Below are positions 27,688 through 28,672 of a DNA stretch of 33,623 bases, piece by piece (position 1 is the first letter of the stretch; each line of letters begins with the position of its first letter). The notes beneath the pieces were generated by a model, which was given only the letters and a program-made list of their open reading frames with translations, did no database searches and was not told where the DNA came from. Location: the IMG/VR virus record IMGVR_UViG_3300035698_011402, one strand, 5' to 3'. Source of the stretch: a virus. The position numbers and the translations under genes were made by a program.

Positions 27688-28371
27688 ATGAACAAGTCAG
27701 AATATGACAAACAGTATAGAGACAAACGTAGAAATATGGGGCTATGCCCTAAATGTGGCAAGAATAGAGCGGTATTAGGGCATTTATGTAAAAAATGCAA
27801 TAGTGTATCGAGGGATAAATGGTCTAAGCGTAGCTGTGACGAAAAATTAGCTTATTCTGTAAATAAGTCGTCGTATGCGAAAGAACAGAGGAAGTTGTGG
27901 GAAAGCAAAGGGCTTTGTACTCAGTGTGGTGTAACCCCTGCTCGTCCTAATAGAAAATCTTGTTTGGAATGTTCTCGCAGACATATTTTACGACAAAATA
28001 CAAGAAAGAAAAATGGAATTTGCAGCAATTGCGAAAATGTCTCTGAGGAAGGGAAAGTTCAATGTGAGGCGTGCCGACTCAAAAGGAATCAACAACAGAG
28101 AGAATTAAAGATAAAGGCGTTGATCTACCTTGGTGGAAAATGCTTTAAATGTGGAAAGGTTAGCGACAAGTTTCCGTTTTTGTTCGATTTTCATCATGTT
28201 GATCCGTCTCAAAAAGAGATTGAGGTATCAGCCATTTTGAAGCGTGGGAAGATACTGTCGAAGAAAGTCAAAAAAGAGCTAGATAAGTGTGAAGTTCTTT
28301 GCTGCGTTTGTCATAGAATGACGCATAATTTAAGTAATAATGAATGGAGGAAATATAATGGAAAATTCTAA
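27688..28371 (+). CDS. HNH homing endonuclease with multiple zinc-ribbon CxxC pairs
   Basis: Repeated C..C pairs then FDFHHVDPSQKE...CCVCHRMTHN HNH core; GGAGGGAGTAAAATG RBS. Confidence 0.7.
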   Translation: MNKSEYDKQYRDKRRNMGLCPKCGKNRAVLGHLCKKCNSVSRDKWSKRSCDEKLAYSVNKSSYAKEQRKLWESKGLCTQCGVTPARPNRKSCLECSRRHILRQNTRKKNGICSNCENVSEEGKVQCEACRLKRNQQQRELKIKALIYLGGKCFKCGKVSDKFPFLFDFHHVDPSQKEIEVSAILKRGKILSKKVKKELDKCEVLCCVCHRMTHNLSNNEWRKYNGKF

Positions 28372-28672
28372 ATTAAAGATGTATGTGCTTGTTAGAACAG
28401 ACTTTACATAGGTATATCAGGCCGTACAGGCTGGACATGCAGTAGCAGAATATTTACTGCGTGTTCCCTGTACAGAATGGGACAATGGAACCCTTATTTA
28501 TTTGGGGGTTTCGTCCGAAGAAGAACTACTCGCTTGGGGAGAGCGATTATCCTTGAAAGGTCTGAAGTGGGAAGGGTTTAGAGAACCCGACAGAGATAAC
28601 GAAATGACTGCGATAGCTTGCGTAGCAGAAGGGAAATTGTTTGCGAATCTAGGATTATTAAAAAGTCCTTGA
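28358..28672 (+). pseudogene. PTH2-like peptidyl-tRNA hydrolase gene interrupted by a single in-frame TAG (codon 18, 28409-28411); candidate suppressor-dependent readthrough gene
   Basis: M..KMYVLVRTDFT-TAG-VYQAVQAGHAVAEYL...GTLIYLGVSSEEELLAWGERLSLKGLKW...TAIACVAEG follows the PTH2 pattern (VVRTDL..GK.AAQ..HA / KVVLKV.SEEEL / GL / TVLAIGPG); no other frame is open here; ends TGA. Confidence 0.5.

Follow-up and report, generated by a model that had tools for sequence, protein, structure and literature searches.

A gene for a small PTH2-like protein in the virus record IMGVR_UViG_3300035698_011402 (IMG/VR) contains one in-frame amber codon, and a tRNA gene with the anticodon CUA, of the amber suppressor type, is found downstream of it on the same strand. 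Both lie in the 33,623-nt stretch analysed here (the window), the only 33.6 kb of this genome at hand. Based on a comparison with other phages, it is proposed, at a probability of roughly 55%, that this is a working gene and that synthesis of its protein depends on the suppressor in a phage that otherwise uses the standard code. A preliminary description of the window had arrived at a similar view, in which one gene is expressed through the suppressor tRNA and TAG is not globally reassigned. The support for this view comes from the phage comparison rather than from the window alone: the PTH2-like gene and a tRNA-CUA gene are linked in about 90% of loci, single TAG codons recur in the gene, and the neighbouring genes are free of them.

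Translation from the ATG at 28358, which follows a strong Shine-Dalgarno sequence (GGAGG), gives MENSKLKMYVLVRTDFT before the TAG (28409-28411) and VYQAVQAGHAVAEYLL...LLKSP after it. The segment just past the TAG reads VYQAVQAGHA, and 86 further codons are open before a TGA at 28670-28672. The coordinates of this open reading frame (ORF, 28358-28672), and of its TAG at codon 18, were correct in the preliminary description, as confirmed by direct reading. That description had placed the TAG within a conserved RTD(F/L)...AAQ..HA segment. In an alignment of 40 sequences, it is found instead in a variable column (mostly Lys, Arg or Pro, also Thr, Gln, Ile, Glu and Val) between two conserved motifs, R-x-D-L/F and QAVQAGHA. 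The closest relatives with an intact gene have Thr (L022) and Phe (L107) at this position. All 18 family-invariant residues are kept in the window protein, flanking the TAG on either side; the gene has this one disabling lesion only, and the ratio of nonsynonymous to synonymous substitution rates (dN/dS) relative to L022 is 0.12. In an AlphaFold2 (AF2) model, the TAG corresponds to the loop that joins strand 1 and helix 1, so a product of downstream restart would lose core strand 1. Orthologous loci, in which a sense codon at this position had been suggested as a check, were found in three syntenic relatives, the short metagenomic contigs L022, L107 and L108. All three have an intact, stop-free gene.

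By sequence, the readthrough product resembles PTH2 only marginally. It scores 16.6 bits (E 0.009) against Pfam PTH2 (PF01981), for which the gathering score is 23, and the best match in a PDB profile search is M. jannaschii Pth2 at an E value of 0.064. The TAG is spanned by matches to two PHROG families (residues 2-89 and 5-94). A search of 5.8 billion proteins returned 249 homologues at E ≤ 0.001, and a profile search of 1.84 billion cluster representatives returned 792 clusters at E ≤ 1e-10. The homologues are 90-115 amino acids (aa) long, mostly 96-100, among the 120 matches listed, and a precomputed PF01981 match is present in only a minority of homologues. The AF2 model, built from the 40-sequence alignment, has a predicted local distance difference test score (pLDDT) of 92.2 and a predicted template modelling score (pTM) of 0.85. 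Its best 15 Foldseek matches in the PDB, which include 2zv3, 1xty, 3erj, 1wn2 and 1q7s, are all PTH2-type hydrolases or archaeal homologues (probability 1.00, template modelling scores of 0.62-0.78). The assignment to PTH2, as made in the preliminary description, is thus borne out by the fold and not by the Pfam match, which is sub-threshold. Relative to PTH2 (archaeal Pth2, human PTRH2/Bit1), the phage proteins share the α/β fold and a similar N-terminal motif, R-x-D-L ... Q..HA. In contrast, the phage proteins are shorter (96-104 aa vs 110-120 aa), and the loop from strand 1 to helix 1, which contains a GK motif in archaeal Pth2, is shorter by two residues. Because of this shorter loop and the marginal sequence similarity, the protein is named PTH2-like and not taken as a proven peptidyl-tRNA hydrolase. 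The window protein has D15, H27 and T84, which are invariant in the phage family, as well as the near-invariant D78. It is predicted to hydrolyse a tRNA ester, and its catalytic equivalence to PTH2 is putative.

The tRNA gene at 31330-31403 is 74 nt long. ARAGORN reads its anticodon as cta, with a 'Pyl' label that is owed solely to this anticodon, and the Rfam tRNA model RF00005 aligns to it end to end at 64.3 bits (gathering score 29). The tRNA has CU-CUA-AA as its anticodon loop, and the gene encodes the 3' CCA. The CUA anticodon claimed in the preliminary description therefore holds under covariance-model annotation, with the loop CUCUAAA in the full-length Rfam alignment. The amino acid carried by this tRNA was sought in two ways: similarity to 442 other phage tRNAs gave no consistent isotype, and the residues that occupy the TAG positions in the TAG-free closest relatives (Gln, Gln, Lys, His, Ile, Gly and Thr) gave no consistent answer.

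To place the gene and the tRNA in a wider context, 80 IMG/VR loci seeded by the PTH2-like protein alone were compared, together with one Logan contig (L023). In 73 of these 81 loci, a tRNA-CUA gene is found downstream on the same strand, within 1 kb in 71 and within 150 nt in 45 (often 4-17 nt). Only six loci have a full 5-kb flank and yet no tRNA-CUA. A control set of 14 loci, seeded by the major vault protein (MVP)-like protein, contained 15 tRNAs, none with a CUA anticodon, and the module was lacking there. In the 735-kb phage genome LR756501, two tRNA-CUA genes are located 2.2 kb downstream of the PTH2-like gene. The 55 distinct tRNAs of the module nearly all share the loop C/U-U-CUA-A-A; a MAFFT alignment shows that their bodies are very diverse, with no isotype resemblance and a variable discriminator base. 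A third component precedes the PTH2-like gene. Among 79 upstream ORFs of at least 60 aa (82 loci), 72 encode a homologue of Up100, directly upstream of the PTH2-like gene and usually overlapping it. Up100 is basic, carries the motif (Y/F)RHxHIAYCxLRGR..EQIE and has equivalents across L023-L103. Searches against Pfam, PHROG and PDB profiles gave no match, and a word-indexed protein search gave only 2. An AF2 model from 3 sequences is all-helical at low confidence (pLDDT 70), and Up100 is thus probably an all-helical protein. The window has the same arrangement, with Up100 at 27315-27620 and the tRNA-CUA at 31330-31403, both on the + strand; in this lineage, an HNH cassette and an MVP-like gene sit between the module parts.

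In-frame amber codons recur in the PTH2-like gene. Exactly one in-frame TAG is present in the gene in eight of the 80 IMG/VR loci (L030, L032, L037, L038, L049, L051, L063 and L080), in LR756501 and in the window; at least 10 lineages have a tRNA-CUA next to an intact PTH2-like gene with one TAG. Among the TAG-bearing copies from IMG/VR and the window, pairwise identity is 50-67%, and these copies are otherwise intact. Their TAGs are mostly at different positions, in tolerant columns that correspond to window positions 18, 37, 38, 40, 50, 63 and 73; a column is shared by L030 and L080, which are 51% identical, and by L032 and L049, which are 59% identical. In every TAG-bearing locus, a tRNA-CUA is located 6-3836 nt downstream. 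The specificity of this pattern was measured with in-frame TAGs that are spanned by homologue alignments, after removal of shadow frames. The PTH2-like genes contain 7 such TAGs in 5012 testable codons, whereas 49321 codons of the neighbouring genes contain no more than a single doubtful one (Fisher p = 4e-7). This test replaced crude counts, dominated by shadow frames and same-frame neighbours, of ORFs joined across stops. The type of stop is also skewed: of the 10 in-frame stops in copies from IMG/VR and the window, nine are TAG, with no TAA among them, whereas random single-base changes would give 31-33% TAG (p = 2e-4). The sole other stop is a TGA at the invariant Trp W41 in L083 (L083:5121, IMG/VR contig 2799112923_000002), where a tRNA-CUA is located 35 nt downstream. 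This observation points to the decoding of TGA as Trp by the phage or its host.

Outside the PTH2-like gene, TAG is an ordinary stop. It ends 14-16% of the long ORFs in the module loci, and no in-frame TAG is found in the 10-kb neighbourhoods of the TAG-bearing relatives. The 320 kb sampled from LR756501 (44% of the genome) has an ORF coverage under code 11 of 0.75-0.92 with no TAG-specific gain, and the long ORFs with internal TAGs are all shadows of standard-code ORFs in other frames. In the window, TAG terminates 10 of the 43 long + strand ORFs (23%), and 11-13 ORFs when those of 70 aa or more are counted. For example, the R2K ATP-grasp gene (10873-11688) stops at a TAG where its PHROG profile ends (residues 2-269 of 271, profile 2-262 of 264). 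ORF coverage of the window is 0.77 with the standard code, 0.85 with TAG as sense and 0.90 with TGA as sense. In a positive control, a region of the Lak-B7 phage, coverage rises from 0.61 to 0.86 with TAG as sense, and ORFs contain dozens of internal TAGs (e.g., 38 in one ORF of 1829 codons). Only one homology-supported in-frame TAG is found among the ~60 genes of the window, and a scan for other ORFs with a single in-frame TAG, as proposed in the preliminary description, gave none with homology support elsewhere in the window. The window thus uses the standard code with one TAG exception, and the claim that TAG is not globally reassigned stands for these 33.6 kb: TAG is an ordinary terminator and brings no TAG-specific coding gain. 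The accompanying claims fared less evenly. TAG does end about a dozen genes, as stated, but these are not all followed quickly by another in-frame stop: after 10873-11688 the next one is 221 codons on, because the next gene shares the frame. A hand count of back-up stops, not used as evidence, gave a slight trend, with more than 20 codons to the next stop for 1 of 11 TAG and 13 of 48 TAA and TGA codons.

Two observations on stop codons concern other genes of the window. The gene at 11695-12354 is in the same frame as the R2K gene and its TAG (11686-11688), and active suppression would produce a 507-aa fusion. In addition, where the preliminary description named a single in-frame stop, the window has a second, a TGA (22251-22253) at codon 147 of 21813-22748 (+), inside a Tpt1/KptA RNA 2'-phosphotransferase domain. 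PF01885 matches in a single stretch across this TGA (E 5e-49, profile 4-176 of 177) and is followed by a C-terminal extension of ~145 aa. No tRNA-UCA was found in the window. This TGA could reflect leaky UGA readthrough, a split gene with restart at the ATG at 22257, or a pseudogene.

In the proposed mechanism, ORF 28358-28672 would be a working member of a phage-specific family of PTH2-fold, tRNA-ester-hydrolase-like proteins of ~96-104 aa, coupled genetically to an amber-suppressor tRNA in the order Up100, PTH2-like gene, tRNA-CUA. Ribosomes that start at the ATG at 28358 would reach the UAG at codon 18, where host release factor 1 would free a 17-residue peptide; alternatively, the phage tRNA-CUA, charged by a host synthetase, would put an amino acid at the UAG. 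Through this gate, synthesis of the full-length PTH2-like protein would require an active suppressor and would scale roughly with its activity. Elsewhere in the region, TAG is an ordinary stop. The amber codon may be a selected feedback or feed-forward link, or it may be free of cost because the protein is needed only while the suppressor works. That the tRNA-CUA is charged and decodes this UAG we infer, and the direction of any feedback is likewise putative. The simplest account of the linkage and the recurrence would be that the tRNA-CUA genes are active suppressors and that the PTH2-like protein works with, or because of, the suppressor. Possible actions of the protein on tRNA include the recycling of dropped-off peptidyl-tRNA and the deacylation of the suppressor to limit readthrough, among others. 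A more specific version, in which a tRNA-ester hydrolase serves or restrains the amber suppressor in an undescribed three-part module and the amber codon is a selected autoregulatory sensor that sets the level of UAG suppression by a logic like that of prfB, is put forward tentatively and is somewhat doubtful.

Several observations weigh against suppressor-dependent synthesis of the PTH2-like protein in the window. The tRNA-CUA is 2.66 kb away from the PTH2-like gene, directly behind a terminator-like hairpin. Since TAG is the stop of 10 of the 43 long ORFs, one of which would be fused to the gene after it, efficient suppression would carry a cost, and the yield of full-length protein may therefore be low. 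The TGA in the Tpt1 gene, which has no cognate suppressor tRNA, indicates that unexplained in-frame stops do occur here. There are no recognisable late genes in the 33.6-kb window. The loci are phylogenetically non-independent, so the p-values given above are approximate, with the direction of the result clear. Finally, the TAG was brought by an inserted cassette. Over the 90 comparable bp, the remainder of the gene is 98.9% identical to the intact L107 allele, which makes its lack of decay uninformative, and the dN/dS of 0.12 relative to L022 mostly reflects history before the insertion.

This cassette, which the preliminary description had missed in placing the gene simply after an HNH gene, is delimited by comparison with L022, L107 and L108, all of which are without the HNH gene. 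Window homology to these relatives ends at 27623 and picks up again at 28414-28418. In the relatives, the start of the PTH2-like gene overlaps the end of the 101-aa gene upstream, and no stop interrupts the PTH2-like frame. In the window, the corresponding remnant, which starts at 27593, is family-like for 9 codons and then runs into foreign sequence and a stop. The cassette supplies a new Shine-Dalgarno sequence, a new ATG and 17 codons that restore the family N-terminal strand, followed by the TAG, 6 nt short of the right edge of the insert (27624-28417). The replacement 5' codons keep the strand-1 motif K-x-Y-V-L-V-R-x-D-F, including the invariant residues R13 and D15; they are 56% identical to L022 in nucleotides, vs 79% across the remaining codons. 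To the left of the insertion (26811-27623), the window is 81% identical to L107 over 818 bp, vs 98.9% over 90 comparable bp to the right of the joint (28418-28507). Because of this difference between the flanks, the comparison indicates a recent insertion or recombination, in which new sequence took the place of the first ~19 PTH2-like codons. The presence or absence of the gene at the same joint, together with the HNH profile match, is what is seen for free-standing homing endonucleases, and the encoded protein (27688-28371) is a distant paralogue of that encoded at 31490-32119 (39% over 76 aa). Free-standing HNH and GIY-YIG homing endonucleases are found in large lytic phages, e.g., seg and mob of T4-like phages. 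As with these, the endonuclease gene is present or absent between conserved genes, and divergence changes sharply at the flanks. In contrast to these, the flanking genes here overlap ancestrally, and for this reason the cassette holds a duplicated, diverged 5' end of the downstream gene, which bears the amber codon. A group I intron splitting the PTH2-like gene was considered and rejected: there is no Rfam intron match in 27300-28800 (E-value mode), and the remnant exon upstream departs from the family after 9 codons. Useful close relatives came from the three short contigs only. A megablast search of INPHARED gave no match, exact DNA patterns around the TAG and the tRNA were absent from IMG/VR, and an exact look-up of the MVP-like protein gave no match.

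The TAG thus stands near the right end of an HNH insertion, and the reading that comes closest to suppressor-dependent synthesis is that it is simply a nonsense codon delivered by the cassette or by recombination. The gene would then be a very young pseudogene, with the tRNA-CUA nearby through ancestral linkage; a sequence or assembly error would have the same appearance. Since the TAG-bearing 5' segment came with the cassette and the rest of the gene is nearly that of intact L107, the undecayed frame is no proof of function here. The position of the TAG at the edge of the insert, the near identity of the right flank to an intact allele without the HNH gene, the divergent 5' codons and the other in-frame stop in the window, in the Tpt1 gene, are all as this alternative would have them. 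On the other hand, the cassette provides a complete new start (GGAGG and ATG) and 17 codons that keep the family motif, which indicates that this segment has a history as coding sequence at the 5' end of such a gene in the donor lineage. Moreover, the stop is TAG, the one stop that this phage can suppress, and the family as a whole shows nine TAGs among 10 stops and no TAA, although mutation leads to TAA more easily than to the other stops. With these points taken together, recent inactivation of the gene is judged unlikely, if still a serious candidate for the window copy.

Another explanation is ordinary partial recoding to code 15, in which TAG would be read as sense late in infection and further in-frame TAGs would be present in many late (structural and lysis) genes beyond the window. 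Phage tRNA-CUA genes and mixtures of standard and recoded genes are documented (bioRxiv 10.1101/2021.08.26.457843), the window has no recognisable late genes, and the Lak megaphages, which have a code-15 signature, carry a PTH2-like homologue near a tRNA with the anticodon UUA. These points are outweighed by the single TAG-bearing gene among ~60 in a window where TAG ends 23% of long ORFs, by the TAG-free 10-kb neighbourhoods of the TAG-bearing relatives, and by LR756501, which has a TAG in its PTH2-like gene and yet 320 kb without a TAG gain or a genuine long ORF with internal TAG; this explanation is therefore considered improbable. Least probable is an effect of the amber codon on RNA synthesis or stability, whereby termination at the UAG would lead to Rho-dependent termination or decay and less tRNA-CUA, with readthrough as positive feedback: the close spacing in 45 of the 81 loci leaves no room for a promoter, and in most loci the tRNA follows the ORF by 4-100 nt and so must be co-transcribed, but in the window a promoter-like site, a 2.5-kb MVP gene and a terminator-like hairpin intervene, and the strong conservation of the protein sequence would be left unexplained.

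The Lak-B7 locus itself (L105, MK250026.1 336000-356000) was also inspected. Its tRNA with the anticodon UUA, of the ochre/amber suppressor type, is located ~0.6 kb upstream of the PTH2-like homologue, and the region has a clear code-15 signature.

Suppressor-dependent synthesis of a single protein can be compared with three known systems. Recoding to code 15 with phage suppressor tRNAs was described by Borges et al. for Lak and crAss-like phages (bioRxiv 10.1101/2021.08.26.457843, published 2022). Suppressor tRNAs of phages, and the possibility that in-frame stops switch expression, are established ideas; in code-15 phages, recoding affects tens to hundreds of genes, mainly structural and lysis genes, and the recoded stop is a rare terminator (bioRxiv 10.1101/2021.08.26.457843). 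The window resembles such phages in that the phage has its own tRNA-CUA and presumably a standard-code host, in that an in-frame TAG interrupts an otherwise intact gene, and in that the stop is proposed to tie expression to the suppressor. It differs in that one gene in ~60 is affected and TAG ends 23% of long ORFs, and in that the affected gene is translation-related and physically linked to the tRNA; LR756501 is in the same state, with no sign of recoding in the sampled sequence. The 'code change module' of Jade phages, which consists of a suppressor tRNA and a tRNA synthetase, together with a release factor (bioRxiv 10.1101/2021.08.26.457843), likewise clusters a suppressor tRNA with protein genes of the translation apparatus. 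In contrast, the partners here are a PTH2-fold protein and a ~100-aa helical protein, with no synthetase or release factor, and whereas the Jade module is written in the standard code, the partner gene here can itself hold the stop. The third system is prfB, the gene for release factor 2, which autoregulates through an in-frame UGA. In both cases, a gene for decoding or termination contains an in-frame stop whose decoding reports the activity of the machinery and sets the output of the gene. However, prfB uses a +1 frameshift and senses its own product, whereas here a separate tRNA would act without a frameshift. The word 'hydrolase' is absent from bioRxiv 10.1101/2021.08.26.457843, and a full-text literature search returned no paper that links PTH2 or Pth to phage suppressor tRNAs or that describes the module. 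The case would be one of gene-specific amber dependence in an otherwise standard-code context, within a conserved and apparently undescribed gene-tRNA module.

The remaining features of the region are listed with the principal ones in Table 1. The hairpin at 31287-31321 ends 8 nt ahead of the tRNA-CUA, and a consensus scan found no promoter-like site between the two. Expression of the tRNA-CUA may therefore require that the terminator is read through or that the MVP transcript is processed. The promoter-like site at 28669-28696 is the best of the consensus scan, with 10 of 12 positions matched. At E ≤ 1e-50, metagenomic contigs of phages and bacteria yield more than 5700 homologues of the MVP-like protein, with no identity above 52%. 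An MVP-like gene also follows the PTH2-like gene in L022 and is absent from this position in the other module loci; judged by this gene order, it is an insertion between the PTH2-like gene and the tRNA-CUA in the window's lineage only.

Table 1 Features of the PTH2-like gene, the tRNA-CUA gene and their surroundings in the window.
Feature	Position	Strand	Basis or remark
Up100, ~100-aa helical protein, first gene of the module	27315..27620	+	Iterative hidden Markov model search
Remnant of the original PTH2-like 5' end, MKLYVLVRK	27593..27658	+	Overlaps the end of Up100
Inserted HNH homing-endonuclease cassette, 794 bp	27624..28417	+	Absent from L022, L107 and L108
HNH endonuclease gene, 227 aa	27688..28371	+	phrog_2255, E 4e-20
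Shine-Dalgarno sequence GGAGG	28346..28350	+	7 nt ahead of ATG 28358; read from the sequence
PTH2-like gene	28358..28672	+	104 codons, one of which is an in-frame TAG
In-frame amber codon, codon 18	28409..28411	+	Next base G
Promoter-like TTGATT-16-TATAAT with extended -10 TG, upstream of the MVP-like gene	28669..28696	+	Consensus match only
Major-vault-protein-like / SPFH gene, 839 aa	28754..31273	+	Pfam MVP_shoulder, E 2e-27
Terminator-like 15-bp GC-rich hairpin and U-rich run	31287..31321	+	Fold -24.6 kcal/mol, z -3.9
tRNA, anticodon CUA (amber suppressor type), class I, G73, encoded CCA	31330..31403	+	ARAGORN, Rfam
Second HNH endonuclease gene, immediately 3' of the tRNA-CUA	31490..32119	+	phrog_2255, E 1.5e-26

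The wider neighbourhood fits a translation and RNA-repair setting: the window contains a transfer-messenger RNA (tmRNA) and five or six other tRNAs, along with genes that resemble those for polynucleotide kinase, Tpt1 and tRNA amidotransferase. The phage tmRNA (25836-26196, +; Rfam 112 bits) encodes the tag peptide ADTALPMAA, and at least nine further loci have a tmRNA gene no more than 5 kb from the module (L024, L033, L035, L048, L051, L059, L075, L076 and L088). A tRNA gene at 2974-3089 (+; Rfam tRNA 47 bits) has a 45-54-nt insertion in the anticodon loop. It is missed by standard ARAGORN, and the intron option gives Tyr(ata), which is unreliable; the anticodon could be Ile-UAU. Four homing-endonuclease-like genes are present in the 33.6 kb (2120-2764, 15833-16612, 27688-28371 and 31490-32119), two of which adjoin tRNAs: 2120-2764 precedes the cluster near 3 kb and 31490-32119 follows the tRNA-CUA. 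Finally, the ORF at 13265-13882 (+) matches the DNA methyltransferase profile phrog_359 at positions 114-309 of 329 only and is preceded, with a 22-nt overlap, by an ORF in another frame (12906-13286). The methyltransferase gene (12906-13882) may thus be split or frameshifted.

Large phages with the standard code commonly carry suppressor tRNAs, and we know of no established purpose for them there. The authors who described XacN1 looked for targets of its two tRNA-CUA genes and found none (PMC5852040). The family described here offers a concrete target: a gene that is nearly always found beside a suppressor tRNA and that repeatedly bears the stop that this tRNA reads. Standard-code gene callers will truncate or miss the PTH2-like gene in about one-tenth of the phages that carry it. 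With one gene, one codon and one tRNA, the locus also provides an experimental handle for the measurement of suppression during infection. If the proposal is true, peptidyl- or aminoacyl-tRNA hydrolysis would be linked to natural nonsense suppression, and the module would be a candidate for the first step, or a minimal form, of stop-codon recoding in phages.

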